Source: Alienimonas californiensis
GTDB lineage: Bacteria; Planctomycetota; Planctomycetia; Planctomycetales; Planctomycetaceae
Direction of reading: 5' to 3'
DNA: 64,000 bases
Assembly (NCBI RefSeq): GCF_007743815.1
Contig: NZ_CP036265.1
Location: 4,149,059-4,213,058 of the forward strand
A program made the translations under genes and the position numbers. Positions 1 to 50,681 of the stretch are shown piece after piece (the first letter of the stretch is position 1; each line of letters opens with the position of its first letter). The notes below the pieces were generated by a model. The model made no database searches, was not told the origin of the DNA, and saw only the letters and a list, made by a program, of their open reading frames with translations.

Positions 1-426
1 CCGTTCGAAGGCCGTCAGGTCGGCCCGGGGCAGCAGGCGGACGCCGGGCTCCGGGTACGGCAGGCTAGCGCTCTTCCAGTGACTCACCGCCGCGTGCCGC
101 ACCTTGGCGGCGGCCCGCAGGGCCGGATGCTTCGTATCCAGCAGCTTCTTGCTGGCGGACAGGCTGCCGGACTCGGCGTCGAAGGGGCTGGCGGCGTCCT
201 CCTTCTGTTCGGCGGACAGCGTCCGCCGCAGGCCGGGCCAGGAGACGTGCAGCCGGACCGCGGCAGCGTCGCTCCGCAGGCGATCGGCGGGCGCCTGCTC
301 ACGGTGATCCCGCTCCTCCTCGAGGACGGTGATCTCTGCGGCGCCCTGGTCGGTCTCGGCGTCGGGCAGGTCCGGGTCGTCTGTGCGGGTACGCCCGCGT
401 CGCGGCGGGCCGATCAGCAGGGTCAT
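1..426 (-). CDS. Hypothetical protein, 5' portion only (start ATG at 426-424, continues beyond the left edge; 142 codons visible, no stop)
   Basis: Manual reverse-complement translation gives MTLLIGPPRRGRTRTDDPDLPDAETDQGAAEITVLEEERDHREQAPADRLRSDAAAVRLHVSWPGLRRTLSAEQKEDAASPFDAESGSLSASKKLLDTKHPALRAAAKVRHAAVSHWKSASLPYPEPGVRLLPRADLTAFER. Balanced amino-acid composition. GAGGAA Shine-Dalgarno about 8 nt upstream. Begins immediately after the intrinsic terminator of the upstream AAA ATPase gene. Not in the ORF track because it lacks a stop inside the window. Confidence 0.45.
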   Translation of the reverse strand, partial: MTLLIGPPRRGRTRTDDPDLPDAETDQGAAEITVLEEERDHREQAPADRLRSDAAAVRLHVSWPGLRRTLSAEQKEDAASPFDAESGSLSASKKLLDTKHPALRAAAKVRHAAVSHWKSASLPYPEPGVRLLPRADLTAFER

Positions 427-443
427 GGGCTTGTTCCTCAGGA

Positions 444-480
444 GGGGGAAAAGAAAACGCCCCGGCGAAGAGCCGGGGCG
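444..480 (-). terminator. Intrinsic terminator downstream of the AAA ATPase gene (minus-strand stem GCCCCGGC-loop-GCCGGGGC followed by UUUUCUUUUCCCCC)
   Basis: Plus strand reads gggggaaaagaaaacgccccggcgaagagccggggcg; on the minus strand a GC-rich hairpin is followed by a T-rich run, 30 nt after the stop at 511. Confidence 0.6.
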
Positions 481-510
481 TGGTGAAGGAGTTGCCGGTG
501 AAGACCGGCG

Positions 511-2076
511 TCAGTTCAGCGAGTGGTTCTGCTTCGCGGGCCGGCTGGTCCGCCGGCGGGGGGCGTCGGGCGACTGCGAATCGTCGCCGGGGCGAAACAC
601 CCCGCCGGCCTCGGCGTCCAGGCAGCGGCCGCTGGCCCACCGCCGCAACTTCGCCAGCGGCTCCGCCGCGGAGACGCTCACCGGCACCACGTGCGTCGCC
701 GCCTCGGCCAGGCTCACGCCCAGCAGGGCGCTCAACCGGCAACAGGATTCGATCTCGGCCCCGGTCCAGCCGACGTCCGCGGGCGTGGATTCGCCCGCGG
801 CGATCCCGTAGCGCTCGCGGTACGTCTCCCAAATGCCCGCCCGCTGCTCGTCTCCGGGCAGGTCCAGGAAGAAGGTCGCGTCGAACCGCCCGCTGCGGGT
901 CAGCTCCGGGGGCAGGCGGGAGGCGTCGTTGGCCGTGCAGACCACAAACACCCCCGCCGGTCGGTCGGCGAGCCAACTCAGCAGCGTGCCGAGCAGACGG
1001 GCCGAGACGCCGGAGTCCTGGGCGCCGCCGGAGGTCCCGGCCAGCGCCCGCTCGACCTCGTCGACGAACAGCACGCAGGGGGCCATGGCCTCGACGGTCG
1101 CCAGCGCCCGGCGGGTGTTTTCTTCGGTGGCGCCGACGAGGCCGGCCATCAGGCCGCCCACGTCCAGCGTGAGCGTCGGGCGGTCGACTTCGCGGCCCAG
1201 CGCCCGGGCGAAGCTGCTCTTGCCGACCCCGCCGGGGCCGAGCAGCAGCACGCCCTTGGCCTCGGCCCGCGGGGAGCCGTTCGTCAGCGCCGTCCGGCAG
1301 AAGACCTTCAGGGCCTGCATGCCGCCGAGGGCGTCGAAGCCGACGCCGCCGCGATGCAGCGACAGCGGACCGCCCGCGGACAGCTGCTTCGCCTTGAGTT
1401 CCCACAGCGGCCCGGGATCGAGCCGGCCGTGCCGCACGAGACTCAGGGCGAAGGCGTTCTCCGCCTCGCCGCGGGTCAGACCGGCGGCAGCGTCGAGGAC
1501 CGGCGTGAGCGGCTCGGGCAGTTCGCCGGCCTCCGTGGCGACGCCCCGGGCGACGGCCTCCAGCTCGTCCCGGTCCGGCAGCGGGTGGGCGACGGTCGCG
1601 AAGTCCCGTCGCAGCTCCGGGGGCAGCTCTCCGGTCGGCTGGATCAGAATCAGGTGCGTCCGGCGGGTCTTGCCGGCGGCCAGCGCCGTCCGCACCGCGG
1701 CGAGCAGCTCCGGGCTGTTGAAGTACCGCTGCGGGTGCACCATGGCGAGCAGCGATGGCGTCTCGCCGTCGCCGGTGTTCGGCAGGGCGCTCACGGCGCT
1801 CTGCGGGTCGGTCGGACCGCCCTCGCAGTTTCCGTCGGCGGACCAGCTGACGAGGTTCCAGTTCCGCCCGCTGCACAGCCGGGCGAGGTCGCGGAGCACC
1901 TCGCCGGGCTCGTCGCTGGTCACCAGCACGCCGGGGAAGGCGGCGGCGATCAGCTCGGCCAACTTCCCGACCAGACCGGCGGCCGGGGCCGGCGGTGAGG
2001 AATCGGATCGGTCGCGGCGGGGACCGCGGTCTCGGCCTGGCTGCTGCGGGGACTGGCCCCGCGATCGACGCGGCAT
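511..2076 (-). CDS. AAA+ family ATPase (classic AAA module with an approximately 250-aa N-terminal domain of unknown function)
   Basis: Walker A GPGGVGKS, Walker B VLFVDEVERA, sensor/SRH region CTANDASRLPPELTRSGRFD. First gene downstream of the DUF1257 and DUF2997 genes on the same strand. Confidence 0.85.
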   Translation of the reverse strand: MPRRSRGQSPQQPGRDRGPRRDRSDSSPPAPAAGLVGKLAELIAAAFPGVLVTSDEPGEVLRDLARLCSGRNWNLVSWSADGNCEGGPTDPQSAVSALPNTGDGETPSLLAMVHPQRYFNSPELLAAVRTALAAGKTRRTHLILIQPTGELPPELRRDFATVAHPLPDRDELEAVARGVATEAGELPEPLTPVLDAAAGLTRGEAENAFALSLVRHGRLDPGPLWELKAKQLSAGGPLSLHRGGVGFDALGGMQALKVFCRTALTNGSPRAEAKGVLLLGPGGVGKSSFARALGREVDRPTLTLDVGGLMAGLVGATEENTRRALATVEAMAPCVLFVDEVERALAGTSGGAQDSGVSARLLGTLLSWLADRPAGVFVVCTANDASRLPPELTRSGRFDATFFLDLPGDEQRAGIWETYRERYGIAAGESTPADVGWTGAEIESCCRLSALLGVSLAEAATHVVPVSVSAAEPLAKLRRWASGRCLDAEAGGVFRPGDDSQSPDAPRRRTSRPAKQNHSLN

Positions 2077-2137
2077 CGGCGTCTCCTTCGTGTGGGTTGA
2101 GGGGATGTGAAAGAACGTGCAGCCGATCAGCGGGCGA

Positions 2138-2332
2138 TCAGGCCCGCTGCTCGACCGTTGGGGCGACAGACTCGGTCGCGTGGTACTCCGGGGTGAGCCA
2201 CTCGGCGGCCTTGGCTCCGAGCGCCTCCTCGTACGGCCGGCTGGCCGCCTTGCAGGCGGAACCGGCGAAGCCCTTGGTCTGGACGCTGGTCTCGCCCTCG
2301 GGCGTGACGGTGATCTCGATGCGGGGGGTCAT
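2138..2332 (-). CDS. DUF2997 family small protein
   Basis: MTPRIEITVTPEGETSVQTKGFAGSACKAASRPYEEALG matches the DUF2997 pattern (MPRIEI..P.G...V.TKGF.G..C). Its start overlaps the stop of the upstream DUF1257 gene (TGATG). Confidence 0.7.
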   Translation of the reverse strand: MTPRIEITVTPEGETSVQTKGFAGSACKAASRPYEEALGAKAAEWLTPEYHATESVAPTVEQRA

Positions 2333-2739
2333 CAGGCGGCCCCCCCGTAGATCTGGTGCGGCGTGCCGCCGAAGCCGGCGGCCCCGGCGGTGACGGTCAG
2401 CTTCACGCCGCCGTCGGGCAGCGAAGTCTCCGTGATCCGGTGCCCGCGGGCTTTGGCCTGCAGCTTGGCGGCCTCGACGGCGTACGCCTGCTTCAGGCGG
2501 CCGAGGAAGGCGTCGTCGCCCCAGCGGCCTTCGTAGGTATCGCAGCGAACGTTCCCGTCGGATTGCACCAGCACGGGGTAGACGAACCCCGGCGGGCGGA
2601 CGGCGATGCCGCGGTGCTCAGCGCCGTCGAAGAATTTGACGGTCTCCTGTCGCGGCTCCGGCAGTTTCAGCCGGACGCAGGCGGCATGGATCGCCGCGGG
2701 GTCTCTCAGTTTCGTCTCAATGGTGACGACGTGGCTCAT
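2332..2739 (-). CDS. DUF1257 (Ycf35-like) family protein
   Basis: N-terminal MSHVVTIETKLRD and the internal pattern W.DDAFLGRLKQAYAVEAAKLQA...DGGVKLTV are typical of DUF1257/Ycf35 proteins. First gene of a three-gene co-oriented module (DUF1257, DUF2997, AAA ATPase). Confidence 0.7.
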   Translation of the reverse strand: MSHVVTIETKLRDPAAIHAACVRLKLPEPRQETVKFFDGAEHRGIAVRPPGFVYPVLVQSDGNVRCDTYEGRWGDDAFLGRLKQAYAVEAAKLQAKARGHRITETSLPDGGVKLTVTAGAAGFGGTPHQIYGGAA

Positions 2740-2787
2740 GGGGCCGCGTCCTTTCGGGTAAGGGGATGGATGGAAATGCGGGATCTG

Positions 2788-3134
2788 CTATGGCAGCCGC
2801 AGCGGGCGGCGGAGCGGGTCCGGCGGGGGGCTGGTGTGTGTGGAAGGGACTTGCGGCGACGGACCGCGAAACCGGCCACGGCTGTCGCGGCGGGGACCGC
2901 GGTTCCGTTTGCGGTCGCCGCGGGGGCGCCGCTCGTCGTGCCGGGGTGGTGGGGGTTGGACGATCCACGCCCCCAGGGCGACCAGCGCCGCCCCGAGGGC
3001 GAGCAGCAGCACGGCGGGGAACAGGTCGTTCGCCCAGGGGCCGGACGTCGGTACGGGCTCGGCGAAGGCGAGCGGCTGGACTGTCAGGGGTGTCAGGGGC
3101 AGTCGAGTGGCCGCTGCGGGCGGCGGGTCGGGCA
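2788..3134 (-). CDS. Possible small membrane protein (one predicted TM helix, LFPAVLLLALGAALVALGAWIV); the C-terminus is Arg-rich and may be spurious
   Basis: ATG at 3134 with one hydrophobic helix. No recognisable family. It lies between the DUF1257 gene and the integrase fragment. Confidence 0.2.
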
Positions 3135-3242
3135 TTTGTTCTTCCGACTGGGGAGGGGGGCCGGCGGGTATTCCGCGGGGTCGTCCTACAGTGCGGCGCT
3201 CCGGCTCCCCGTTTAGCACGCCGGAGCCGACGGCGTTCAGAC

Positions 3243-3641
3243 TCACCCCACCTCCCGCATCACCCGCTCGGCGGCGGCGAGGTCGCGTTCGGCGTAGATC
3301 TCGCTGGCGCCGGTGTCGCTGTGCCCCGGCACGGTGCGGGTCAGCTCGATGCCGTACTTCGCCCGCAGCTGGGTCGCCCGGGTGTGACGGAGCTGGTTCG
3401 GGGACCAGCGACATGCAGCCCGATGCTCCTTCACCTTCGCCTTCACGGCGGAGCGTTCGGCGTTCGGCAACGTCTGAATGCCGACGTGCTTCGCGGCGAG
3501 ATCCGCGGGAAGGGGGATGGCGTTCTCAGCGGCGCTGCACGCACCGGCGGTAGCTGGTCGTCGTGTACCGATGGCCGACGGACCGGACCGGTTCCTTTCT
3601 GCGGTTGGTCCCGACGCGACTGCCACAGGACTCAGAAGCAA
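3243..3641 (-). pseudogene. Tyrosine recombinase C-terminal fragment, out of frame with the upstream integrase-like gene (frameshifted tail or remnant of a second integrase)
   Basis: RSAVKAKVKEHRAACRWSPNQLRHTRATQLRAKYGIELTRTVPGHSDTGASEIYAERD carries the canonical HxxR...GHS...Y catalytic-end motifs of phage-type integrases. Only about 75 aa are conserved and the first ~50 aa of the ORF look non-coding. Confidence 0.55.
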
Positions 3642-3707
3642 TCCGAGCAGCGGTCGCGGCGCCGCGGCGGGTCGCCTCCTTGGGTCGTACCCAGCAATGG
3701 TTCTCCG

Positions 3708-5405
3708 CTACTGTTCCCGAAGCGGGCAAGTGTTTGGCAATGAAGCGTCCAACTCGGCGAGAGCGGGTCGCAGGTGCCGTCCGTACCGCTCGACCGCCTC
3801 GAACGCCGCTGACCACGGCCGGGACGAGTAATGGCGGAACAGCAGTGGACCCGAGGGGTGCGGGCTGCCGTGGCAGAGGACCGTGTCGTTGACCTCGGCG
3901 GGCACGCCCGCCTTGGTCGCCCAGCCGCTGAACTGCTTGCGGACCGTGCCGAACGGGAGCCTCGGGACAGCGCCGCCGGCCTTTTCGCAGCGGGTACGCT
4001 GGGCCGACCAACGCTTCGCCACGAGGGACTGGGCGTTCTTCAGGGCCGTCCTGCCGCTGCCGCCGTCCCGGTAGAGCGGTCCCGAGTCGACGACCAGGAC
4101 CCGCGATCCGTCGGCCGGTGGCGACCCGTTGCGTACTGTTTCGGATTCTCGCCATCCGTTCAACAGGGCGGCGGTTTCCCGCCATAGCGGCCACCACCCC
4201 GCGACGCCCGATTTCGCACGTACGAACCCCGCCCACCCGTGCGACGAATCCGGCACGTCCAGTCCTTCGCCCGCCCATGGGTGCGGCCCCGGCGGGTACA
4301 GATGGCCCCAGGTCAGACGGCCGACTTCCGCCGCCCCGCCGGCGAGGTTCAGGCCGAGGACCAGCATGAGCTGGTCCAGAGCGTCTCCGTGGCGGAGCAG
4401 CTTCGCGAGTTCGTCGTTTGTGAACGTTCGAACAACACCGGTGCCAGTGGCGGCCCGCTCGGCGGGGGTATCGGCGTCGACCTTTCGGTTGAGGCGGGGC
4501 AGGTCGGCGGGTTCCCGCCACCCGCACTCCCCGTCGAGGTGCATCCAATTCAGAGCCAGCATCAGTTCGGCGACCATCTGCCGGGCCCGCTTCACCGTGT
4601 ACCGCCCACCGCGTCGGCTCTCGGGGCGGGCCCGCCAGAAGTCGATCATTGCCCGGCACGCATCGAGGTCCAAGGCCGCCAGCGGCGTGTCCGGGTGCCG
4701 GGCGATCAGCTGCCGGACTTTCGCGTGCCGGTCCGACGCTCCGCGAGCCTCCGCCTGCACGGCGGCGAGGTAGCGGTTGAACTGCTCGTGCAGGGTGCCG
4801 GGTACTGAGACGGGAGCAGCCGGATTCTTCACCACCGACGCCGCTCCCATCACAACCGCCGCCGCCGGGGCGAGGTCGTTCGGCGGGGGCGGGACCTGTT
4901 CGCCGAGTTCGACCAGTTTCGCCGCCGACTGGTATCCCGCCTTCACGCCCATCTTCAGCCGACGAACGACCCCTGCTCGATCACCGCCTGGCCGGTCGGC
5001 CTCGTGTAGCAGCAGGTCGGCGGGAATGTGTCGGGCCAGTCGGCTACGCACCGCCGCCCGCACCTGGGCCTCCCGGGGCTTCGACAGGACGTCCGGCGGC
5101 GCTCCGTCAGGGACTGGACCGAACGGATTGCCGGCGGCCCGATACGCGGCGGGACTGACGTCGATCAGCTCCCCCTGCCGCACGGACTCGGCGATTTCGA
5201 CCGCCAGCGGGCTCCACTCGCCGAATGCTTCGTGGACCGTTCGCAACACGTCCCGCCGCCGGGCCGCTTCAACCTGCGAGACCTCCCGCGGGAACGTGAA
5301 CTTCCGCCGCGATCCTGCCGGTCCCACCGAGACCTGACAGCGGCCTCTGGAGTCCGGCTTGGGCAGCCCCGTCTTGCGGGAAGCGGCGGGTTTCGGAGCA
5401 GCCAT
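3708..5405 (-). CDS. Tyrosine-type site-specific recombinase/integrase-like protein (about 566 aa, atypical)
   Basis: N-terminal MAAPKPAASRKTGLPKPDSRGR... from the ATG near 5405. Contains core-like segments (AEVGRLTWGHL, FVRAKSGVAGWWPLWRETAALL). The C-terminal segment VRKQFSGWATKAGVPAEVNDTVLCHGSPHPSGPLLFRHYS loosely aligns to the HxLRHTFAT...LGH...Y region but is degenerate (H of HxxR absent). Lies immediately 3' of ssrA, the classic island integration site. The ORF-track start at 5549 is probably upstream of the true start. Confidence 0.6.
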   Translation of the reverse strand: MAAPKPAASRKTGLPKPDSRGRCQVSVGPAGSRRKFTFPREVSQVEAARRRDVLRTVHEAFGEWSPLAVEIAESVRQGELIDVSPAAYRAAGNPFGPVPDGAPPDVLSKPREAQVRAAVRSRLARHIPADLLLHEADRPGGDRAGVVRRLKMGVKAGYQSAAKLVELGEQVPPPPNDLAPAAAVVMGAASVVKNPAAPVSVPGTLHEQFNRYLAAVQAEARGASDRHAKVRQLIARHPDTPLAALDLDACRAMIDFWRARPESRRGGRYTVKRARQMVAELMLALNWMHLDGECGWREPADLPRLNRKVDADTPAERAATGTGVVRTFTNDELAKLLRHGDALDQLMLVLGLNLAGGAAEVGRLTWGHLYPPGPHPWAGEGLDVPDSSHGWAGFVRAKSGVAGWWPLWRETAALLNGWRESETVRNGSPPADGSRVLVVDSGPLYRDGGSGRTALKNAQSLVAKRWSAQRTRCEKAGGAVPRLPFGTVRKQFSGWATKAGVPAEVNDTVLCHGSPHPSGPLLFRHYSSRPWSAAFEAVERYGRHLRPALAELDASLPNTCPLREQ

Positions 5406-5573
5406 CAACGGGTTGGGAGGCGGAGGCGAGGGAGGCGCTCGGGACCGACTATGCCACCCGATATTCGCCCTTATGCCACCCACTATGCCACCCAGTCGTT
5501 CCTTTCGCGAGTCACAGGGAGCCCGCCAGGACCTCGGTGCGTTCTGCAATCCTTTGTCGGCAAAGCAGATACG

Positions 5574-5603
5574 AAAAAACCCGCCCCGGCGGACCGGGGC
5601 GGG
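5574..5603 (-). terminator. Intrinsic terminator of ssrA (minus-strand stem CCCGCCCCGG/CCGGGGCGGG followed by U6)
   Basis: Plus strand reads aaaaaacccgccccggcggaccggggcggg, directly abutting the tmRNA 3' end at 5611. Confidence 0.65.
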
Positions 5604-5610
5604 TCAGTGG

Positions 5611-5965
5611 AGGCGGGGGGAATTGAACCCCCGTCCTGCGAACGCTGAGCCGAAGCCTCTACGTGCGTAGTCCTTTGATTGATCTTACGTCGGCCGGTTC
5701 ATCGGACAAAACCGGTTCGACGCCAGCCCACCACGGGGTTCGCTTCATCAGTAGCGGGCGCTGGGATGAAGCTAGTCGGATTTGTGACCGACTTTCAGGC
5801 GCCTCCGACGTGGCCCCTTCAGTCGGCACGGTCTAGGGTTACTAGGCCGCGAGGGAGAACTGCGGTTTGGCAGTCATCGTTGTGATCGGCTTTTTACGAG
5901 GCCAACCGATCAACCTCGGCACGCCACCCCGACCCGAGACGGACCAGTCGAATCCGATCGCCCCC
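5611..5965 (-). ncRNA. ssrA: Transfer-messenger RNA (tmRNA, SsrA), about 355 nt
   Basis: On the minus strand the 5' end is GGGGGCGAUCGGAUUCGACUGG and the 3' end is ...GGGGGUUCAAUUCCCCCCGCCUCCA (T-arm GGGGG-UUCAAUU-CCCCC). The 7-bp acceptor stem GGGGGCG/CGCCUCC has a G3:U70 wobble, the alanine identity element. An internal tag reading frame ends ...GCC AAA CCG CAG UUC UCC CUC GCG GCC UAG UAA, i.e. ...AKPQFSLAA followed by a double stop. CCA is not genome-encoded. Confidence 0.85.
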
Positions 5966-6098
5966 GGTACGGCGTGACCCGGAACCGCCCGCGACGTTCG
6001 CACGCGGCTCCGAACACGTCCCTATTATCGCACAGCACGCAGCATCGTCAAGAGGGGAACGCGGAGGCCCGGCCGGGCCTCCGCGATACGAACCTGAC

Positions 6099-7206
6099 TT
6101 AGCCGTTGGAGTTCTTCTTCACCGTGTATTGGTGGTTCCGCTTGGAGACCACCTCGGCGTTCTGGATCTCGTCGCCGATCTGCAGGCTGTCCACGACTTC
6201 CTGTCCTTCGATCACCCGGCCGTAGACGGTGTGCTTGCCGTTGAGGTGCGGGGTGGGCAGGTGGGTCAGGAAGAACTGGCTGCCGGCCGTGTTCGGACCG
6301 CTGTTCGCCGCGGACAGGGTGCCGCGGAAGTGCTTGCGGGCGCCGGGGTTATTGAACTCGCTGTCGATCGCGTAGCCGGGGCCGCCGCGGCCGTCGTCGG
6401 TGGGGTCGTCGTTCTTGGAGTTCGGGTCGCCGCCCTGAGCCATGAAGTTCGGGATGACGCGGTGGAACTTCACGCCGTCGTAGAAGCCGCTCTCCACCAG
6501 CGTGATCATGTTCGCGACGGCGTTAGGGGCTTCCTCTTCGAACAGTTCCAGGGTGACGTCGCCCTTGGTGGTCTTGAAGACGACGCGGGGCAGATTCATC
6601 GAGGCCTGCTTCTGGCGGGTCGCCTGCTCCTGGGCCCAGAACTGGGCGTACTCCGGGGCGGCCTCGGCGAAGCTGGCGAACTGGGGGAGCAGCACGCCGG
6701 CGGCCTCGGCCTTGGCGAAGTTCTGCTGCGCCTCAGTGAACTTCTGCAGGGCGAACTGCGACGCCGGCAGCAGGTTCAGGCCGATGCGGTTCTGCGGGGC
6801 GGTGGCGAGCAGCTTCTTGGAGAACTGCTCCGCGTTGGCGTAGTCGTTCTCGCCGAAGGCGTTGGTGGCGGCCCAGACGGCGACCGACTCGCTGAGCTGC
6901 GGGGCGGCCTGGGCGGCGGTCATCAGCGCGTTCCGCTGCTGGACCACGTTTGTCTGGAAGTCCTTGAAGAGCTGCTCGCCCTCCGCCTCGATCTGCTTCT
7001 TCCGGGCCTCGTCGGCGTCGCGGTACTGCGTCTGCAGTTCGACGACCTTCTCGTCCAGGGCCGTCTCGCGGGCTCGGATCGCTTCGAGTTGGGCGTCAAG
7101 ATTGCCCTGGGCGAACGCCGTCGGGGCCGGGAGGCCGGCGACGCAGACGGCGAGCAGCGCCGCGGTCAGCAGTCGGCGAGAGCGCGGCTGGAAGGAGAAA
7201 CGCATG
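6099..7206 (-). CDS. Peptidyl-prolyl cis-trans isomerase, cyclophilin type, with signal peptide and coiled-coil N-domain
   Basis: C-terminal FHRVIPNFMAQGGDP...GRVIEG cyclophilin signature. Signal peptide MRFSFQPRSRRLLTAALLAVCVAGLPAPTAFAQ. Start ATG mapped at 7206-7204; the longer track ORF 6099..7310 has an implausible N-terminus. Confidence 0.85.
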
Positions 7207-7334: not shown

Positions 7335-8507
7335 TCAGAACCGGGCGACTTGCCGCAGCGTAATCAAGCCCCAGGCGCCGATCAGCAGGTTGCCGACCCA
7401 CACCGTCCAGCGGGGGTCGGCGTCCCCGTGCTTCGCCAGGTTCAGCATCCCCAACGTGATCGGGTAGTACACCAGCAGGATCGGCACGAAGCAGATCATG
7501 AAGGTGGTTAGGAAGCTGCTCCGGCCCAGCTTGATGCTGAACGTGCCGCCGATCAGGGCGAAGAACAGGCAGCTCGCCGCCATCGCCGGCCGGGAGTAGA
7601 TCTCCGTGAGCACCTTGTATTCGGGGATGCGCACCTTCGTCGGCGCCGGCGGGGAGGGCGCCAGTCGGTCCGGCCGGGGGAGTTCGCCGAGCATGAGGTC
7701 CAGCGTGGCGACCGCCGCGGCGTGTCGCTCCCGGGCGGCGGTGTTCTCCCGCAACAGATCGAGTTGGCGGAACAGGTCGGTGGTCGTCCGGTGGCGGGGC
7801 TTCGTCTCCTCCTCGGAGTTGCCCAGCGGGAAGGAACGCACCTCCCGTTCAAAGTAGCCGTTGACCCGCCCGCCGGATTGGAGCAGGCCGTGGTGCATCT
7901 CCACCCGCACCACGTTCTCCTCCAAATCGAACGAGACGTTGGCCCGCTCCGCGGTGACGGTGACGGGGCTGCGGCCGGCCGGGGCGTAGCGGAACTGCGG
8001 GCCGATCAGCGTCTTGCCCTCCACCGCCCGGGCGGTGATCATCAGGCCGCGCTCCGGGTCGCTGAAGCGATTGGTCGTGCGGAGGAAGTCCAGGAACAGA
8101 TCCTCCATCGCGTCGGAAACGATCTTCTGGATATTCGCCATCGCCCACGGGATGACGCGGTCGGTCAGCACGAAGCTGGAGATGCTGAGCGCCGCGGCCA
8201 GCAGGAACGCCGGGGCGAGCAGCGTGAAGACGTGGGCGCCCGCGGCCTTCGCGGCGATCACCTCCTGATCGCCCCCCATCCGGCCGTACACGATGCAGAC
8301 GCTCAGCAGCAGCGTCGCCGGGATCGTGAATGGCATCAGCGACGGCACGATGTACGGCAGAATCTGTGCGATCTGCTCCGCCCCCAATCCTTCCTCGCTG
8401 GCCCGCTGGGCGACCCCCACGAACACCAGCAGGATCGTCAGCACCGCTAGCAGGAAGCCGAACACCCGCAGCAGTTCCCACAGAATCGCCCGTTGGATCA
8501 ATCGCAA
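7335..8507 (-). CDS. LptF/LptG family LPS export permease (YjgP/YjgQ)
   Basis: N-terminal LRLIQRAILWELLRVFGF is the typical LptF/G start. Six hydrophobic segments around a large periplasmic domain. Start assumed to be the TTG near 8507; the upstream part of track ORF 7335..9011 is Arg/Pro-rich and non-coding-like. Confidence 0.75.
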   Translation of the reverse strand: MRLIQRAILWELLRVFGFLLAVLTILLVFVGVAQRASEEGLGAEQIAQILPYIVPSLMPFTIPATLLLSVCIVYGRMGGDQEVIAAKAAGAHVFTLLAPAFLLAAALSISSFVLTDRVIPWAMANIQKIVSDAMEDLFLDFLRTTNRFSDPERGLMITARAVEGKTLIGPQFRYAPAGRSPVTVTAERANVSFDLEENVVRVEMHHGLLQSGGRVNGYFEREVRSFPLGNSEEETKPRHRTTTDLFRQLDLLRENTAARERHAAAVATLDLMLGELPRPDRLAPSPPAPTKVRIPEYKVLTEIYSRPAMAASCLFFALIGGTFSIKLGRSSFLTTFMICFVPILLVYYPITLGMLNLAKHGDADPRWTVWVGNLLIGAWGLITLRQVARF

Positions 8508-8838
8508 GGCGGCGTCTCCGGGGGCGGGCGAACGGGAACGACGGGAATGATAGCGACCGGACCGCAGGCGTGGCGGCCGAGCCTGGACGGCGGAACTCGG
8601 TTGTCGGTCGCGGAACGCGCCGAGGTCAATCCCGCACGGGCACCTACCCTCACGGGCCAGCGCACGAAGCCGCACGGGCCCGCATAAGGCGCTCGGCGGG
8701 GCTGACGGCCCGCACGGCCCGGACGTTCGGGCGGTTTCCGAGCGGGGCGCCCCCGGATTCGCTCGGAAACGGGTTGCCAGCGACGGGGCGGGGCGGTCCG
8801 ATGCGGGAGTTCTCACGCCTCCCGATCCCTCCACCGCA

Positions 8839-9339
8839 GTGCCCGTCGTGTCGAATCGTCCGCGTCCCTTTCGCTCCCTCGGCCTTCGTACGCTGGCGCT
8901 GGGGGCGCTCCTCGCCGCGGCGTTCACGGCGGGCCGACTGTCCGACGGACCCCTCCTGCCGGTCGCCGGGGCGCAGCAGGACCCGGTCGACGATGCAATC
9001 GTCATCCGCATGAAGCAGGGCTACGAGGCGCTGCGGCGGGCACAACTCGCCCTGGAGCAGTCCGGCCACTACGTGCCCGCCGCCAACGGCGTGAACGCCT
9101 TCGTGACGTTCGCCGGCGGATACGACGTGCTGACCTCGCTGGAGAACGGCCGCGGCGTCGACCCGGAGACCTATGCCGCCCTCGAAGCCGGCTTCGCCCC
9201 CCAAGCCGTGCTGAGCGAACTGGGCCGCGACGGCTCCGGGCGCCTCACCTACAAGAATCGTCTCGTGCGGCTGCTCCCGAAGGAAACGCTGCGGGCGATG
9301 TACCTGCGGCGGGCCGAGGTGCTGGGCGAATCGCTCTGA
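8839..9339 (+). CDS. Hypothetical secreted protein (signal peptide LRTLALGALLAAAFTAG)
   Basis: ORF with an N-terminal signal-like segment and balanced composition. No family recognised. Confidence 0.4.
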   Translation: MPVVSNRPRPFRSLGLRTLALGALLAAAFTAGRLSDGPLLPVAGAQQDPVDDAIVIRMKQGYEALRRAQLALEQSGHYVPAANGVNAFVTFAGGYDVLTSLENGRGVDPETYAALEAGFAPQAVLSELGRDGSGRLTYKNRLVRLLPKETLRAMYLRRAEVLGESL

Positions 9340-9665
9340 CCGCGGGCCGAGCCGGCGCCGCCGGGCGTCGTCGGCAGAACCGGCGCGACCTGTGCGTTCC
9401 TCGGGCGGATGCGGTCGGCGCGTCGTTCAGGTCGAAGTCAGAGAGCACGGCCCGGTCGCCCCGACCGTCCCCGCCGTTTCTGAAAAATCGAGCCCCGCGG
9501 GGCGCTTCGGCTGGAGCGTTCGCACAACCCGCCCGACTGGGCGAACCGGCTTGACTTTTCGGACCCGCCGCCGGATTCGATTGCCCGCTCGGGCGCTCCC
9601 GTCCGGTAGACTGGCAGCCGCCGGACCTCACTCGCCCCTTTCGCCTTACCCCGGGAGACGCCCCC

Positions 9666-11267: not shown

Positions 11268-11368
11268 CCGACGCTGAGGCGACCCCAGACGACGACCGCC
11301 CGGTCGGGACCCCCTCCCGCCCGGGCGGTTCCGCGTCTGCGGCGCCCGGGTCCGAAGGAGGGGGGACC

Positions 11369-31148: not shown

Positions 31149-32852
31149 ATGTTTCTCCCGCCGCTCGCCCAGTTTGAGGGCGAATCGAACGCGATGCTGT
31201 ACGTCGGCTTCGCGGTCGTCGCCGCCGCCCTCGTCGCCTTCACCCTGCTGATGTTGGTGGTGAAGCGCTATAAACGCTGCCCGTCGAACCGCGTGCTGGT
31301 GATCTACGGCAAGACCGGCGGCGCCGCCGAAGAGGGCCAGGGGCAGGCCGTGAAGTGTCTGCACGGCGGGGCGAGCTTCGTCTGGCCGCTGATTCAGGAC
31401 CACGACTACCTCTCGCTGGACCCGATCCAGATCGAGATCCCCCTCCGCGGGGCGCTCTCGATGGAAAACATCCGGGTCAACGTGCCCAGCGTGTTCACGG
31501 TGGCCGTCGGCACGACGCCGGAACTGATGACCAACGCCGCCATCCGCCTGCTGGGGCTCGGCACCGAGGAGATCAAATCGCAGGCCCAGGAGATCATCTT
31601 CGGCCAACTCCGGCAGGTGATCGCTTCGATGCGAATCGAGGACATCAACCGCGACCGGGACACGTTCCTCTCCCACGTGCAGAACAGCGTGGAGCCGGAG
31701 CTGCGCAAGATCGGCCTGGTGCTAATTAACGTCAATATCACGGACATTCAGGACGAGTCCGGCTACATCGACGCCATCGGCAAGAAGGCCGCCTCGCAGG
31801 CGGTGCAGACGGCCCGCGGCGACGTGGCGGATCAGGAGAAGCTCGGCGAGGTCCGCGTCGCCGAGGCCCAGCGGGAGCGGGAGATCGCCGTCGCCGTGGC
31901 GAACAAAGAGCGGGAACTGGGCACCCGCGGGGCCTCCCGCGACCAGGCGATCGGCGTGGCGGACTACGAGCGCGATCAGGCCGTCGGCGAACAGCGGGCC
32001 CAGTTCGAACGCGACGTGCAGGTCAAGGAAGCGGAGCGCGAGAAGCGGATCAAGAACGCCCAGGCCGACGCCGCAGCCGTCGCGGGCGAGAACGAAGCCG
32101 CCGCCCTCGTCGCCGCCTCCCGTGCCACACTGGGCGTGAAGAACGCCGAGGCGTACCAGCTCGCCGAGACCCGCAAGCGAGAGGCCGAGGCCGCCGTGCA
32201 GGAGGCCGCCTTCCGGGCGATGACGAAGGCCGCCCTCGCCGAGGCGGAGAAGGTCGAAGCGGAGCAGCGGGCCGAGCTGGAGGCCCACGCCAAGGCCCAG
32301 AAGGCGAAGCGGATTGTCGACGCCGAGGCCGCCGGCGAGCAGCGCCGCATCGAAGCCGACGCCGAGGCCCACGCGATCTTCGCCAAGTTCGAGGCCGAGG
32401 CCCGCGGTCAGTACGAGATCATGGCCAAGAAGGCCGAGGGTCTGGAGCGGATCGTGGCGGCCTGCGGCGGCAGCGACAAGGCCTTCCAGATGTTGATGCT
32501 CGAACACCTGGACGCCCTCACGGAGGCGTCCGCGAAGGCGATTTCGAACATCAAGTTCGACAAGGTGGTCGTCTGGGAGGGCGGCGGGAAGAACGGCCAG
32601 AGCAGCACCGCCGGTTTCCTGCAGAACATGGCCCGCACGCTGCCGCCGATGATGGAGGTGATGCGCGACGTCGCCGGCATCGAACTGCCGGAGACGCTCG
32701 TGAAGCTGGCCGAGGACCGCGACGAAGCGGCGCAGAAGGGCGCCGACAAAGCAACCCAGCGAGCGACCGCCGGCCCGCCGCCGCCGTCGAAGAACGGCCC
32801 GGCGAAGGCGGAGCCGACTCCTCAGCCGCAGTCGAAGCACGGCGACGGTTAG
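31149..32852 (+). CDS. Flotillin / SPFH (band 7) family protein with long Ala/Glu-rich coiled coil (YqiK-like)
   Basis: N-terminal TM, SPFH region VIYGKTGG...VKCLHGGASFVWPLIQDHDYLSLDPIQIEIPLRGALSMENIRVNV, then an extended EA-rich flotillin coiled coil. Alternative start at about 31194 (MLYVGF). Confidence 0.85.
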   Translation: MFLPPLAQFEGESNAMLYVGFAVVAAALVAFTLLMLVVKRYKRCPSNRVLVIYGKTGGAAEEGQGQAVKCLHGGASFVWPLIQDHDYLSLDPIQIEIPLRGALSMENIRVNVPSVFTVAVGTTPELMTNAAIRLLGLGTEEIKSQAQEIIFGQLRQVIASMRIEDINRDRDTFLSHVQNSVEPELRKIGLVLINVNITDIQDESGYIDAIGKKAASQAVQTARGDVADQEKLGEVRVAEAQREREIAVAVANKERELGTRGASRDQAIGVADYERDQAVGEQRAQFERDVQVKEAEREKRIKNAQADAAAVAGENEAAALVAASRATLGVKNAEAYQLAETRKREAEAAVQEAAFRAMTKAALAEAEKVEAEQRAELEAHAKAQKAKRIVDAEAAGEQRRIEADAEAHAIFAKFEAEARGQYEIMAKKAEGLERIVAACGGSDKAFQMLMLEHLDALTEASAKAISNIKFDKVVVWEGGGKNGQSSTAGFLQNMARTLPPMMEVMRDVAGIELPETLVKLAEDRDEAAQKGADKATQRATAGPPPPSKNGPAKAEPTPQPQSKHGDG

Positions 32853-32906
32853 CGCCGCCCGGGGCAGGCGGTCTGCACGGGACACAACCCGTGCAGAGCC
32901 CCCGCC

Positions 32907-46910: not shown

Positions 46911-49900
46911 TCAGTCGCCGCCGCCGGAGCGGCTGATGCTGCGGCGGTAGGTCTGATAGAGATCCTCGAACTCCGGCGGCACCGGCAGGTCGCGCGGGCC
47001 GATCTCGCCCTGATCGGTGCCCTCGATCTGCGAACCTTCCCGCAACGCCTGCGCGTTGCGGCGGCGGTTGCCGAGCGATTCGAGGAGGGCGTCGAACTGC
47101 TTCTGCCGAGCGGCCTCCCGCGGGTCGGCGGGCTGCTGCGGGGCGTTGAGGCGCTCGCCGAGGCGGTCGGCAAACCGGCGCATCTGGTCCTCGGTCCAGC
47201 CGAGTTCCTTCAGCAGTTCCGGGTCGACCTCGCCGCGGTCGAGTTGGTCCCGCAGCTTGTCGAGGGCCAGCGAGGTGGCCCGCCGGGCGTAGTCGCGGTT
47301 GGCTTCGTCGACGGGCGTGTCCACGGAGGACCCGTCGGACGGATTCGCCCCGTTCGGTCCGCCGTTCGGGCTGCCGCCGCCGTTCCCCCCGCTCCCGGCC
47401 CCGGCGCCCTCGCCGGGCTGAGCTCCCTGACCCGGCTGCTCGCCGGCGCCCGGCTGCTGGCCCTGACCGGGCTGCTGGCCCTGACCGGGCTGCTGGCCCT
47501 GACCGGGCTGCTGGCCCTGACCGGGCTGCTGGCCCTGGCCCGGTTGGTTGCCCTGACCCGGTTGGTTGCCCTGACCCGGTTGGTTGCCCTGACCCGGTTG
47601 GTTGCCCTGTCCGGGCTGCTCGCCGGGCCCGGGCTGTTCGCCCTGGCCCGGTTCATTACCGCCCGGCTGGTCGCCCTCGCCGGGTTGTTCACCGCCGGGT
47701 TGTTGGCCGCCCGGCATACCGTCCTCGGAACGTTCACCTTCCGGCGGGCCGCCCTCAGGCGGGTCAGTTGGCTGACGTTCGCCGTCCTGCATCGAACGCT
47801 CGTTCGGCTCTTCGCCGGAGTCTGTGCCCTCGCCTGGCTGCGGTTCACCGGGCCGCCGCTCGCCCGGTTGCGGTTGGCCCGGTTGCGGTTGGCCCGGTTG
47901 CCGCTCACCGGGCTGTTCGGAGCCGCCGGGTTCGCCGGGGGCATTTTGGTTGCCGGCGGGGTCTCCGGGGGGCGGGTTGCCGGAGGGCGGCTGGTTCATC
48001 TCGCCGGCTGGCTCCCCCGGGTCGGTCCCTGAAGGGGGAGCACCCTCGCCGGGGGCGGCGTCCGCGGCGTCGGCCGGGTCGCCGGCGGTGCGGTCCGCGC
48101 CCTGTTCGCCGGCACCGTCGGCGGGGTCGGCGTTCGGGTTGTCGCCGCGGGGCTGATCGCCGGCGGGGCGTTGCTCGCCGGGCGCGCCGGGGTCGCCGGC
48201 GTTGGGATCGGCGCCCTCCGCGGTGGGGTTGCCGGCGTCACGGTTCTCGCCGGCCGGGCCGTTCTGGTCGGCGCCGGCGCCCATTTCGTTGGGGGCCTCG
48301 TCACCGGCCGAGCCCCCCGGGGCGGACTCGCCGCCGGGGCCGGCACCGCGTTCGTTCTCGGGCTGATCGCCGGGTTCGTTCATGCCGCCGCCGGCCTCCT
48401 GTTCTCCGCGTTCCTCGGCAGGGGAGGGGGCGTTCCCGTCCGCCTCACGCTCTCCCGAAGGCTGCTGGCCGCGCGGGGAATCGCCGGCGCCCGGCTGATT
48501 TTCGCCGCGATCTTCACCAGCACTGTCTTCGCCGGCCTCGGGGCGCTCGCCCGGTTGCGGTTGTTGGCCGCCCTCTTCGCCGGGCTGCCGCTCGCCGGGC
48601 TGCGGCTGTCCGTCCTGCGGCTCTTTGCCGAGCTGCTCGAGCATTTTTTCGAGGGCTTTGTCGTCCTCGGAGCCGTCCGCCCTGACCCGTTCGCCGGCCG
48701 AATCGCCTTGCTCGCCGGAGCGGTCGCCGCCGGGCTGCGCGTCCGCGTTCTGGTCGCCCTCGGCGTTGCCTTCGGCGCCGTTCTCGCCGGCGGCGCCCAT
48801 CTGGTTCTCGCCTTCGCCCTCGCCGTTTTCGCCGGCCTCGCCCTCGGCGCCCTGCTCGCCCTCGCCCTGCTCGCCCTCGCCCTGCTCGCCCTCGCCCTGC
48901 TCGCCCTCGCCCTGCTCGCCCTCGCCCTGCTCGCCCTCGCCCTGCTCGCCCTCGCCCTGCTCGCCGGGTTCCTGTTCCTGCTCTTCGCCCGGCTTGGGCG
49001 GCTCGTTCTCGTCGGCGTTCTCCGGGCGGTCTTGGCGTTCCTGCTCCGCCTGGCGTTCGCGGTCCTGTTTGAGCTGTTCCTCGGCCTGCTCCTCGGAGAC
49101 CGGCTCCGTGATCGTGATCGTCAGCCGCGGGGTGTTGCGGTGGTTGAAGAGCGGCGTTTGATTGTCGAGGGCCTCGATCCAGTAGGTGAGGACGTCGCCG
49201 GCTTCGACCTGCTCGTCGGTCAGATCCCAGTCGTGGGTGAGGGAGACGGCGCGCTCGGAACCTTCCCACAGCGGGATCTCCATCGCGGTCGGCTGGCCGT
49301 TCTTCTCCCGCCGCAAGGCGAGGGAGCTGAGCCGGAAGTCCGGGTCGCGGGCGGTGATTTTCAGCGGGACGGTCGCGTTCGCCGGGCGGGTGATGTCGCC
49401 TTCCGGGTCCAGCAGCGTGACCTCCGGGGCCTCGTCCGGGCGGACCGTGATCGGGTGGACGGTGGGGCGAGGATCTTTGAAGCCCTCGGCGTCAGTCACT
49501 TCGATCCGGTAGAAGGCCGGGGCGCTGCCGTCCCGACGCCGGGTGAGCGTCCAGGCGCCGGTGAGCGTCTTGCCGTCCTCGGAGACGGTCATCGTCGCCC
49601 TCTCGTCGGGGGCGTCGAAGGCGGCGTCGTCGGCGAAAGCGAGCGTCGCCCGCTTCACCGGCAGGGCGGCGGTCGCGGTGAACGTGGCGACCGTGCCCTC
49701 GACGGCGTCCACCGCGCCGGTCGACTGGGTGAAGGGTTCCAGCCGGGTGTATTCCGGGAAGGTCAGCGAAACCGACTGCAACTCCGCGTGCGGGGCGGGG
49801 GAGACGGTCACACGGAACGGCCCGGCCTCAGCGTCGCCGGCGGTGACGGTATAGGTCAGCGGGCCGGTCAGGCCGCGGCCCTCGGGTCCGGCGATGACGC

Positions 49901-50681
49901 CTTCAAAGGTGAGTTCGTCGCCGGCCTCCCGCAGCACCACGGGCGCCCCGACGGCCCGGCTGTCGTCGGTCGTGTAGGTGACGAGCACCTCCTTCGGGAT
50001 CTCCCCGCCGACCACCGCGGTGACGGTCAGCATCTCGCCGGCCAACACGTTGGCGTTGCCGGGCTCGACCCGCAGCAGACGGGTGCGGGTGACCGGGGCG
50101 ATAGGGGCACTTGGCAGCAGGGCCCGAGCTAGGGAATCGCCGATCGCCTTCGGGCTGAGCAGCGCGTAGCCGCAGGCGAACACCACCAGCACGAGCAGGG
50201 CGGTGGAAAACCGAATCAGCGCGCGGCGGTCGACGGCGTCGTCCACGTCCGTCTTCTGCAACGCCGCGGCGGCCCGCTTCTGCATGGCGGAGCGGACCTG
50301 CCCGTTCGCCCCGCCGGGGCCGTCGAGGAGGTTCATCAAACCGCCGCGGAGCGTGGGGTCGTGCCGTTCGATCTGATCGGCGGCGTACAGCCGGTTGATG
50401 CGTCGCATCGCCGGCCGCACCACCTTGAAGCCCAGCCAAACGGCCGCCGCCAGCGCGACGGCGCCCAGCAGCAGACCGCGCATCAGCGGGCTGAACCCGC
50501 CGGGGATCACCCAGTGATCCAGCACGACAAACGCGCTGAGGTAAGCCAGCACGAGCACCGCCAGGCCCACCGCCGCCGTCAGCAGATCCGCCCAGCGAAT
50601 GCCGGTGCGGGCTTTGTCGACCTGGGCCTCGATGAACTCATCGAAGGTCAGGTACTGCCGGGACGGGGCGTCGGCGCTCAT
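46911..50681 (-). CDS. Large membrane-anchored protein with N-terminal TM helices, Ig-like/beta-rich central region and about 650 aa of acidic Gly/Pro/Gln/Glu low-complexity repeats (possibly DUF4175-like); last gene of the ApbE/BatA-like/vWA operon
   Basis: N-terminal TMs (LLTAAVGLAVLVLAYLSAFVVL, LLLGAVALAAAVWLGF, LIRFSTALLVLVVFACGYALL). Repeat blocks GEQGEGEQ x8 and QPGQGNQ/QPGQGQQ x10 encoded by 18-nt tandem DNA repeats. Conserved non-repetitive C-terminal about 120 aa. Confidence 0.65.
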   Translation of the reverse strand: MSADAPSRQYLTFDEFIEAQVDKARTGIRWADLLTAAVGLAVLVLAYLSAFVVLDHWVIPGGFSPLMRGLLLGAVALAAAVWLGFKVVRPAMRRINRLYAADQIERHDPTLRGGLMNLLDGPGGANGQVRSAMQKRAAAALQKTDVDDAVDRRALIRFSTALLVLVVFACGYALLSPKAIGDSLARALLPSAPIAPVTRTRLLRVEPGNANVLAGEMLTVTAVVGGEIPKEVLVTYTTDDSRAVGAPVVLREAGDELTFEGVIAGPEGRGLTGPLTYTVTAGDAEAGPFRVTVSPAPHAELQSVSLTFPEYTRLEPFTQSTGAVDAVEGTVATFTATAALPVKRATLAFADDAAFDAPDERATMTVSEDGKTLTGAWTLTRRRDGSAPAFYRIEVTDAEGFKDPRPTVHPITVRPDEAPEVTLLDPEGDITRPANATVPLKITARDPDFRLSSLALRREKNGQPTAMEIPLWEGSERAVSLTHDWDLTDEQVEAGDVLTYWIEALDNQTPLFNHRNTPRLTITITEPVSEEQAEEQLKQDRERQAEQERQDRPENADENEPPKPGEEQEQEPGEQGEGEQGEGEQGEGEQGEGEQGEGEQGEGEQGEGEQGAEGEAGENGEGEGENQMGAAGENGAEGNAEGDQNADAQPGGDRSGEQGDSAGERVRADGSEDDKALEKMLEQLGKEPQDGQPQPGERQPGEEGGQQPQPGERPEAGEDSAGEDRGENQPGAGDSPRGQQPSGEREADGNAPSPAEERGEQEAGGGMNEPGDQPENERGAGPGGESAPGGSAGDEAPNEMGAGADQNGPAGENRDAGNPTAEGADPNAGDPGAPGEQRPAGDQPRGDNPNADPADGAGEQGADRTAGDPADAADAAPGEGAPPSGTDPGEPAGEMNQPPSGNPPPGDPAGNQNAPGEPGGSEQPGERQPGQPQPGQPQPGERRPGEPQPGEGTDSGEEPNERSMQDGERQPTDPPEGGPPEGERSEDGMPGGQQPGGEQPGEGDQPGGNEPGQGEQPGPGEQPGQGNQPGQGNQPGQGNQPGQGNQPGQGQQPGQGQQPGQGQQPGQGQQPGQGQQPGAGEQPGQGAQPGEGAGAGSGGNGGGSPNGGPNGANPSDGSSVDTPVDEANRDYARRATSLALDKLRDQLDRGEVDPELLKELGWTEDQMRRFADRLGERLNAPQQPADPREAARQKQFDALLESLGNRRRNAQALREGSQIEGTDQGEIGPRDLPVPPEFEDLYQTYRRSISRSGGGD
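47455..47625. repeat. 18-nt tandem repeats (ctgaccgggctgctggcc x5 then ctgacccggttggttgcc x4) inside the large gene, encoding the QPGQGQ/QPGQGN repeats
   Basis: Direct reading of sequence lines 47461-47620. Confidence 0.85.
48851..48965. repeat. 18-nt tandem repeat (gccctgctcgccctcgcc, about 6.5 copies) inside the large gene, encoding GEQGEGEQ repeats
   Basis: Direct reading of sequence lines 48841-48965. Confidence 0.85.

Follow-up and report, generated by a model that had tools for sequence, protein, structure and literature searches.

An island at ssrA of Alienimonas californiensis carries a divergent predicted integrase and the start of a multi-copy AAA+ ATPase-DUF1257-DUF2997-DUF3150 cassette

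A 64-kb stretch of Alienimonas californiensis (Planctomycetota), referred to here as the window, opens inside an integrative island next to ssrA, the gene for transfer-messenger RNA (tmRNA), and the island is truncated at the left edge of the window (position 1). Scans for open reading frames (ORFs), Rfam families, terminators and protein profiles found the features described by an initial annotation at roughly the coordinates given there. All features of the locus lie co-oriented on the minus strand (ORF listing of the window), and from the tmRNA promoter to the window edge they are:

6051..6024, minus: sigma70-like promoter of tmRNA, fitting the Rfam 5' end
5605..5965, minus: ssrA (tmRNA), Rfam RF00023 over the full model 1-374 (150 bits, E 7.5e-60)
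5568..5632, minus: attachment-site (att)-like block, the final 28 nt of ssrA plus the terminator hairpin 3' of ssrA; recurs in comparison loci L082 and L085
5605..5578, minus: strong terminator directly 3' of tmRNA (terminator scan)
5448..5493, minus: direct repeats GGGTGGCATA(GT/AG), three copies ahead of the integrase start (read from the sequence)
5405..3708, minus: intact divergent tyrosine recombinase, 565 aa, putatively specific for the ssrA 3' end (ORF; context of relatives)
3641..3243, minus: ORF of 132 aa holding an integrase remnant (ORF listing)
3243..3452, minus: the remnant inside that ORF, from a canonical tyrosine integrase (its C-terminal ~70 residues, HxxR ... GHS ... Y)
3188..3216, minus: left cassette boundary, CTAAAC-N16-GCACTGT, promoter-like (alignment of 13 copies)
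3135..2788, minus: small predicted membrane protein, 115 aa (ORF listing)
2739..2332, minus: divergent DUF1257 (Ycf35-like) protein, 135 aa (Pfam matches of relatives)
2332..2138, minus: DUF2997 protein, 64 aa, with a GFxGxxC motif (Pfam PF11211)
2076..511, minus: AAA+ ATPase of the Ycf46 family, 521 aa (PF00004)
481..457, minus: second strong terminator, 3' of the ATPase gene (terminator scan)
426..<1, minus: DUF3150 family gene, first 142 residues, open at the window edge (relatives, fold match)

ARAGORN agrees with the Rfam call of the tmRNA gene and predicts the tag peptide AKPQFSLAA. The ARAGORN 5' end reaches 6082, about 115 nt beyond the Rfam end at 5965; the sigma70-like promoter fits the 5965 end.

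Tyrosine integrases insert islands and prophages such as E. coli CP4-57 and Vibrio VPI into the 3' end of ssrA. An island of this kind had been proposed here from the sequence, and the comparison loci (L-numbers) bear it out: on L083 and L084, two Alienimonas-like contigs from metagenomes, an integrase homologue directly follows the 3' end of tmRNA and the cargo differs, with a reverse transcriptase and unknown genes in L083 and the BREX genes PglZ and BrxL in L084, at the site where the window has the cassette described below. The upstream core synteny LptFG - PPIase - tmRNA is common to the window and L083. Relatives of the integrase are always found at ssrA or at a copy of its last 28 nt, with cargo that includes reverse transcriptase, BREX and primase genes. 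In L083, a reverse transcriptase of 573 aa (RVT_1) and, after it, an unknown protein of 433 aa are encoded at positions 8396-11415, and the two may form a defence-type reverse transcriptase system.

The 28-65 nt att-like block has the sequence GGGGGTTCAATTCCCCCCGCCTCCACTGACCCGCCCCGG... and recurs as a 63-65 nt copy (94-98% identity, with exact matches to the 25-nt core) directly upstream of the integrase homologues in L082 (9771-9835) and L085 (9282-9344), where the full tmRNA gene is absent. A second, degenerate att copy precedes the first in both loci, together with an RPA-ParA-ParB block, and this arrangement has the pattern expected of tandem islands. The order of L082 is that of the window, namely integrase, remnant and cassette. 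The sequence preceding the integrase-led island (L082 1-9514 and L085 1-9026) is an 83-93% identical block that ends at the degenerate copy of the ssrA 3' end and encodes two unknown proteins, a cupin, RPA (PF10134, plasmid replication), ParA and ParB; it resembles a plasmid-like element that has integrated at the tmRNA site also used by integrase-led islands. The RPA-ParA-ParB block was considered as the backbone of the same element and rejected in favour of a separate element in the tandem array, because the downstream cargo differs and two att copies intervene. Repeat and pattern searches found no second att copy within the 64-kb window, and the island continues past its left edge.

In every element compared, the stretch from the att block to the integrase start contains triple direct repeats of 9-12 nt. 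The repeat unit depends on the integrase lineage; it is GGGTGGCATA in the window, GGGTGCGATA three times in L084 (~9900-9960), and CCGGACACA three times with inverted copies at the equivalent site of L083 (~6110-6190) and L085 (~9440-9520). The repeats are candidate arm-type or operator sites, and their lineage-specific sequence suggests putative protein-binding sites that co-evolve with the integrase.

With CP4-57/VPI-type islands the element shares the position of the integrase gene immediately 3' of tmRNA, a copy of the gene's 3' end brought by the element, variable cargo at the site and, in its relatives L082 and L085, tandem att copies. The tmRNA gene is regenerated because the element carries this copy of its 3' end. 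Comparison of GC content and codon usage, suggested earlier as a check for an island signal, gave none for the cassette: GC is 71.7% in positions 1-5600 and 71.5% in the rest of the window, and GC at third codon positions (GC3) is 0.89-0.93 in the cassette against a background of 0.885. The integrase is mildly low in GC3 (0.814) and the remnant is low (0.789).

The integrase had been taken for a degenerate gene; its frame is in fact intact, and its seven close homologues are full length and 48-76% identical to it. The 565-aa product shows 100% identity to a hypothetical protein whose gene lies on the 5.48-Mb A. californiensis chromosome. A profile of the protein matches 560 representative clusters at E<=1e-3 in an exhaustive HMMER search. 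The protein has no Pfam match at E<=10, including Phage_integrase (PF00589), and no NCBIfam match; a seven-sequence profile has no sequence match in the PDB, and a 97-sequence profile gives only a weak match to the lambda Int core-binding domain (E 0.02). Because sequence profiles failed even with 97 sequences, its identity as an integrase rests on fold comparison, which recovers the core-binding and catalytic-domain folds from a model of low confidence. Mapping of the catalytic set R-K-H-R-H/W-Y by eye places K398, R489, H512 and Y526 as invariant or nearly so, and the position expected for the box-I Arg is Gly357 in close relatives. R396 is invariant and R345 near-invariant, and these could stand in for the box-I Arg. 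The protein is read as a member of an atypical family rather than a decayed copy, because it is intact and conserved and the missing Arg is family-wide; it is assigned to a conserved, divergent family of tyrosine recombinases. It differs from the integrases of CP4-57/VPI-type islands in having no match to integrase profiles, in its box I (NCGFG family-wide and LAGGA in close relatives, for the expected TGLR) and in its long N-terminal region, and the island appears to be of the ordinary ssrA-integrating type with an unusual integrase. The family, comprising at least several hundred clusters, is missed by standard integrase profiles, and islands bounded by it will evade routine detection.

A separate C-terminal integrase fragment, also noted earlier, is real, lies at about 3452..3243 and is the sole true integrase remnant of the locus. 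It matches Phage_integrase weakly (E 0.014, over profile positions 112-168 of 172), and its matches to the XerA, XerS, XerC and IntI models (E 0.008-0.09) are likewise weak but mutually consistent. The equivalent position of L082 bears the same remnant in a more decayed state, and L011 has a 51-aa match to it. The remnant appears to derive from an older, canonical integrase.

Downstream of the remnant, the initial annotation recognized a three-gene module (DUF1257, DUF2997 and ATPase). This triad belongs to a larger cassette of nine genes and about 6.5 kb with sharp ends, whose first 3.2 kb lie in the window; the cassette is the sole sequence common to 14 loci of the Alienimonas clade. Its gene order is constant: a membrane protein (missing in some copies), DUF1257, DUF2997, the ATPase and DUF3150, followed by proteins of 85-88, 68, 470-510 and 140-165 aa. 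Homology begins exactly at CTAAAC-N16-GCACTGT in copies that have the membrane-protein gene, as seen in the 13-copy alignment, and this motif may serve as a promoter. The right end lies just past a GC-rich hairpin terminator followed by TTAGC (L011 ~15470, L082 ~18540). At the homology limits, GCTAAAC on the left (window 3211..3216) and TTTAGC on the right form a 6-nt inverted pair; no target-site duplication was seen at the cassette ends.

Each Alienimonas genome has from three to six or more diverged cassette copies, and ATPase paralogues number at least five in A. californiensis, six in one metagenome-assembled genome (MAG) and at least six in strain DA493. The copies are old, since they are only 70-90% identical at the protein level. 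None of the remaining copies is close to a tRNA or tmRNA gene.

The membrane protein, listed earlier as a small possible one, has one predicted hydrophobic helix and an Arg-rich tail, and is the first cassette gene in most copies. It is kept at 75-92% identity in L008, L013, L014 and L082 and was found in 10 loci by jackhmmer; scans of domain and system libraries gave no family match.

The family assignments of the triad held above cut-off for AAA and DUF2997, and through relatives for DUF1257. The 135-aa protein scores 14.5 bits (E 0.044) against Pfam DUF1257 (PF06868; cut-off 22.2) and is placed as a divergent member of this family because 27 of 46 aligned homologues match it at E<=0.01 (best 2.8e-10) although its own score is below threshold. 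The alignment covers planctomycetes, Desulfobacterota, archaea and phages; the L022 homologue passes the cut-off with 24.1 bits, the window protein matches phrog_20456 (E 7e-4), and the DUF1257 profile has no match in the PDB. An N-terminal Met-Ser-His is at least 90% conserved across the 46 sequences, from planctomycetes to phages and archaea, as are Y54, D67, Y86 and G99 (window numbering), and the Met-Ser-His may be a functional N-terminus. The DUF2997 protein matches PF11211 over its full length (1-47 of 47; 52.1 bits, cut-off 24.1, E 6e-14) and phrog_23133 (E 3.6e-6). The TGATG stop/start overlap described for the module applies to the DUF1257-like and DUF2997 genes, whereas DUF2997 and the ATPase gene are separated by 61 nt.

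The ATPase (PF00004, 86.3 bits, cut-off 21.2, E 3.1e-24) belongs to the classic clade and consists of an N-domain of about 270 aa and unknown fold, followed by an ATPase domain like Cdc48/VCP D2. It has both Walker motifs (A, GPGGVGKS; B, VLFVDEVE) as well as the second region of homology. In the PDB it is closest to VCP-like ATPase, Cdc48 and p97 (8e-34, residues 272-453 only), and it matches phrog_8638 with E 2.3e-68 over residues 136-487. Relatives at 49-54% identity carry the UniRef name ycf46 (annotation only). The C-terminal residues N-x-S/T/A-L-N are conserved among cassette copies.

A strong terminator had been called after the module, and it is found between the ATPase and DUF3150 genes as the hairpin ACGCCCCGGC-loop-GCCGGGGCGT followed by a T-run (457..481). 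The stem is nearly unchanged in 14 of 14 cassette copies, with a lone C-to-T substitution in each of two copies that leaves the base pairing intact, while the 4-nt loop differs freely between copies. The gene beyond it, described earlier as a further unknown gene, belongs to the DUF3150 family, a partner of the ATPase across phyla. Its 142 residues have no Pfam match of their own and are 82-91% identical to full-length relatives of about 346 aa, some of which UniRef names DUF3150. Homologues linked by jackhmmer in Desulfosarcina and an archaeon pass Pfam DUF3150 (PF11348) with 46.8 and 44.4 bits, and a Foldseek comparison matches the AlphaFold2 model (pLDDT 83.6) of a relative with 89% identity to a DUF3150 protein from a phage (E 1.4e-14, TM-score 0.67-0.78). 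Almost nothing functional was found in the literature on DUF3150 or on DUF1257 and DUF2997.

Searched against the PDB, a profile of the 470-510 aa protein matches beta clamps and nothing else (38 chains, best 3.6e-12), and for this reason the protein is taken as a diverged paralogue of DnaN, extended by a C-terminal tail of about 130 aa. The match spans domains II-III (in one case residues 34-369), and as a single sequence the protein has no Pfam match. Unlike bacterial DnaN, the cassette clamp bears this tail, is multi-copy and is not beside dnaA or recF; a loader-type AAA+ is also absent, the neighbouring cassette ATPase being of the classic clade.

Conflict-related cargo had been suggested for the island, and the neighbourhoods of other cassette copies fit this. 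In the loci for which gene calls with Pfam annotation exist, the cassette adjoins conflict genes: L001 has a type I restriction-modification system beside it; in L129 it lies between HEPN/DUF499, DUF1156 and SNF2 helicase genes and McrBC; in L130 its neighbour is a CRISPR-Cas locus of type I that includes a WYL regulator; and in L082 it is followed by FRG, MazG and TCAD9 genes. In 11 further loci, the families seen most often among 51 flank ORFs are ResIII, SNF2 helicases, N6 methylases, MmeI-type enzymes, PLD nucleases, Cas3-like proteins and DUF1156, together with DDE and IS110 transposases. PADLOC models matched in the flanks are DrmMI, DrmD, HmaA, PbeA and type I and type IIG restriction models. 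Restriction (type I, IIG, IV), DISARM-like or CRISPR-Cas genes are present in the flanks of most copies examined.

The core of the cassette (AAA, DUF1257, DUF2997 and DUF3150, often with the 85-aa protein) is found on phages, plasmids and islands of many phyla, including planctomycetes, Desulfobacterota, Nitrospirota, Acidobacteria hosts, Bacteroidota, cyanobacteria and archaea. Outside planctomycetes, 14 loci (Desulfobacterota, Bacteroidales, Pseudomonadota and one archaeon) have the gene order AAA-DUF1257-DUF2997-DUF3150; in Desulfosarcina the module is flanked by ArdC-N, RadC/JAB, MerR and VIT-vWA genes. IMG/VR contigs with a relative of the ATPase have at least one partner gene in 32 of 41 cases and all four in 13. 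Rhizobium phage L338C carries the module immediately before its DnaB helicase gene, Tunturiibacter phage Tunturi_3 carries it as well, and Corndog-like mycobacteriophages probably have an ATPase-DUF3150 pair. A Manganitrophus plasmid reads JAB - AAA - DUF1257 - DUF2997 - DUF3150 - Fic in an independent annotation, and a Pseudanabaena plasmid reads GrpE - Hsp70 - DUF1257 - ATP-binding protein - DUF2997 - AAA. Recurrent neighbours elsewhere are a PD-(D/E)XK nuclease, a HerA-like ATPase and Pol III beta. These phage and plasmid copies fit a role in the service of the element at least as well as one in host defence.

Further named systems resemble parts of the cassette. Cyanobacterial and plastid Ycf46 (slr0374 / Synpcc7942_0417) and Ycf35 share with it the Pfam families AAA and DUF1257, and DUF2997 too; identity of the ATPase to cyanobacterial relatives is about 34%. 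Cyanobacterial ycf46 is part of a strongly stress-induced three-gene operon (PMC7496141; bioRxiv 10.1101/2025.07.21.665879), DUF2997-ycf35-fed7 is a conserved cyanobacterial cluster in which fed7 encodes the ferredoxin Fed7 (PMC4284462), and ycf35 and ycf46 were jointly lost in freshwater red-algal plastids (PMC5940233), which agrees with the functional link implied by the operons found here. In cyanobacteria, however, both are single-copy core genes and the cluster partners of ycf35 are DUF2997 and Fed7, not ycf46, whereas here they form one multi-copy operon on mobile DNA that includes DUF3150 and the clamp. No DUF1257 or DUF2997 neighbours were found at the picocyanobacterial ycf46 loci examined. 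The idea that the DUF1257 and DUF2997 genes of the cyanobacterial ycf46 operon are slr0373 and slr0376 found no confirmation in the literature consulted and was dropped.

The IetAS/SgiAT systems pair an AAA+ ATPase with an S8 subtilisin-like protease and act as an anti-phage system and as the SGI1 toxin-antitoxin, respectively; the SGI1 antitoxin has been described as SpoVK/Ycf46/Vps4-like (PMC10954446). The likeness of the cassette ATPase to IetA is confined to the ATPase domain (residues 273-447; PADLOC 2.6e-17, NCBIfam IteA 6.6e-17). Membership in IetAS was rejected, as no protease is found in the window or the cassette copies and the partner genes are entirely different. Cdc48/p97/VCP and proteasome-activating unfoldases are the best matches among solved structures and share the Walker motifs, but the cassette protein has a single predicted ATPase ring, an N-domain without known relative, a pore loop of S/G-L-V-G instead of aromatic-hydrophobic-Gly, and no identified protease or ubiquitin-like partner.

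The reading we favour, and consider somewhat probable, is that the locus is an ssrA island with an intact, atypical integrase and a multi-copy, phage-related cassette that constitutes a conflict module around a protein-unfolding ATPase. The ATPase would form a hexameric, ring-shaped protein unfoldase or segregase, a role suggested because its ATPase domain is closest to VCP/Cdc48/p97 D2 and its Walker motifs are intact. The DUF1257, DUF2997 and DUF3150 proteins could be its adaptors, regulators or substrates, which fits the constant pairing with two very small proteins and DUF3150 and the linkage to Hsp70/GrpE. When host and invading DNA are in conflict, the complex may remodel or extract a protein associated with DNA, a DNA-bound target being suggested by the clamp paralogue and the DNA-metabolism neighbours; in Alienimonas the cassette's own clamp might be tied to this target. 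As to their role, we lean slightly towards host defence or restriction control, rather than counter-defence or establishment, in the case of the Alienimonas copies that are chromosomal, amplified and set among defence genes. A bolder version, which we hold to be rather unlikely, is a novel conflict system in which the unfoldase, DUF1257/DUF2997/DUF3150 and the clamp would monitor or dismantle protein-DNA complexes on foreign or unmodified self DNA, perhaps together with neighbouring restriction or CRISPR systems (licensing them or alleviating restriction). If so, ycf35 and ycf46 of plastids and cyanobacteria would be relatives of this adaptor-unfoldase pair that have become domesticated.

Several points weigh against the conflict-module reading. 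The far end of the island lies outside the window, as do the last 3.3 kb of the cassette, whose presence in this genome is deduced from relatives. The integrase has no canonical box-I Arg and a low-confidence structural model, so that its activity is only predicted, and the ATPase pore loop has, family-wide, a Leu where most unfoldases have an aromatic residue. No cassette protein matches any PADLOC model except through the ATPase domain: six of the seven window proteins have no match in PADLOC-DB v2 at E<=0.01, and the ATPase matches IetA and TRIP13 there via its AAA domain only. The defence-flank counts are drawn from 51 pooled ORFs, without a per-locus table or statistical background. Finally, the module has phage replication neighbours (DnaB, Pol III beta, PD-(D/E)XK) and, in Desulfobacterota, ArdC and RadC.

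These last neighbours bear on a role that serves the element itself, which is possible at clearly less than even chances. The module would then be an early function of phages or plasmids that aids establishment or replication of incoming DNA; it could unfold or strip restriction enzymes, nucleoid proteins or clamp-bound factors, and the chromosomal copies could be element leftovers in defence islands. Its presence in the isolated phages L338C (next to DnaB) and Tunturi_3 and, with partner genes, in 32 of 41 IMG/VR contigs speaks for this, as do the ArdC-N, RadC/JAB and Fic neighbours in Desulfobacterota and on the Manganitrophus plasmid, the recurrent nuclease, HerA-like and Pol III beta neighbours, and the cassette's own clamp. 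Phages carry defence systems too, however, so carriage by phages is not decisive, and the Alienimonas copies are intact, multi-copy and diverged, with flanks that share no other element genes, which points to retention by the host. It is unlikely that the cassette itself is a small non-autonomous mobile unit, or a site-specifically recombined cassette, that the island merely carries. Homology among copies does start and stop at the same nucleotides, with the inverted pair GCTAAAC / TTTAGC at the limits, several copies occur per genome, and DDE_5, DDE_3 and IS110 transposases recur in the flanks; but no target-site duplication was seen, the cassette holds no recombinase, its copies are old, the 6-nt match is weak, and the ends consist of a promoter-like motif and a terminator, as a duplicated operon would show.

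An old, fixed and decaying island, in which the integrase is a pseudogene and the cargo inert, is very unlikely. Such decay would accord with the true integrase remnant at ~3452..3243, the integrase without a canonical box-I Arg, the fully ameliorated composition, and frameshifts in some MAG copies, though these are possibly long-read sequencing errors. Against it, the 565-aa frame is intact and conserved in 7 close and 560 distant representative clusters, the missing Arg is a family-wide trait and not a local lesion, and the cassette ORFs inside the window are all intact. That the triad is a housekeeping stress operon like cyanobacterial ycf46/ycf35, near ssrA by chance, is highly improbable and largely refuted by copy number and context. 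Relatives are named ycf46, the cyanobacterial gene is in a stress-induced operon (PMC7496141; bioRxiv 10.1101/2025.07.21.665879), a DUF2997-ycf35-fed7 cluster exists (PMC4284462), and there is no compositional anomaly here; yet the genomes hold several diverged copies in differing contexts, the others away from tRNA and tmRNA genes, the module is on phages and plasmids, and picocyanobacterial ycf46 loci are without DUF1257/DUF2997 neighbours.

AAA-DUF1257-DUF2997-DUF3150 is a widespread module whose partner proteins have no PADLOC v2 model. With its amplified copies, gained clamp and restriction and CRISPR flanks, the Alienimonas cassette is a concrete candidate for defence or counter-defence, and from the operon linkage one would expect Ycf35 (DUF1257) to partner the Ycf46 ATPase.

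Two other features lie elsewhere in the window. ARAGORN calls a 96-nt tRNA-Arg(tcg) at 32772..32867 (minus strand), which is far over standard tRNA length, has no obvious cloverleaf and is probably a false positive. An ORF of 1256 aa at 46911..50681 (minus strand) encodes N-terminal hydrophobic helices and an acidic, low-complexity tract of about 600 aa rich in Gly, Glu, Gln and Pro, with tandem GEQGE and QPGQG units, and this tract accounts for the extreme AT skew (-0.49, -0.69) at 47-49 kb.

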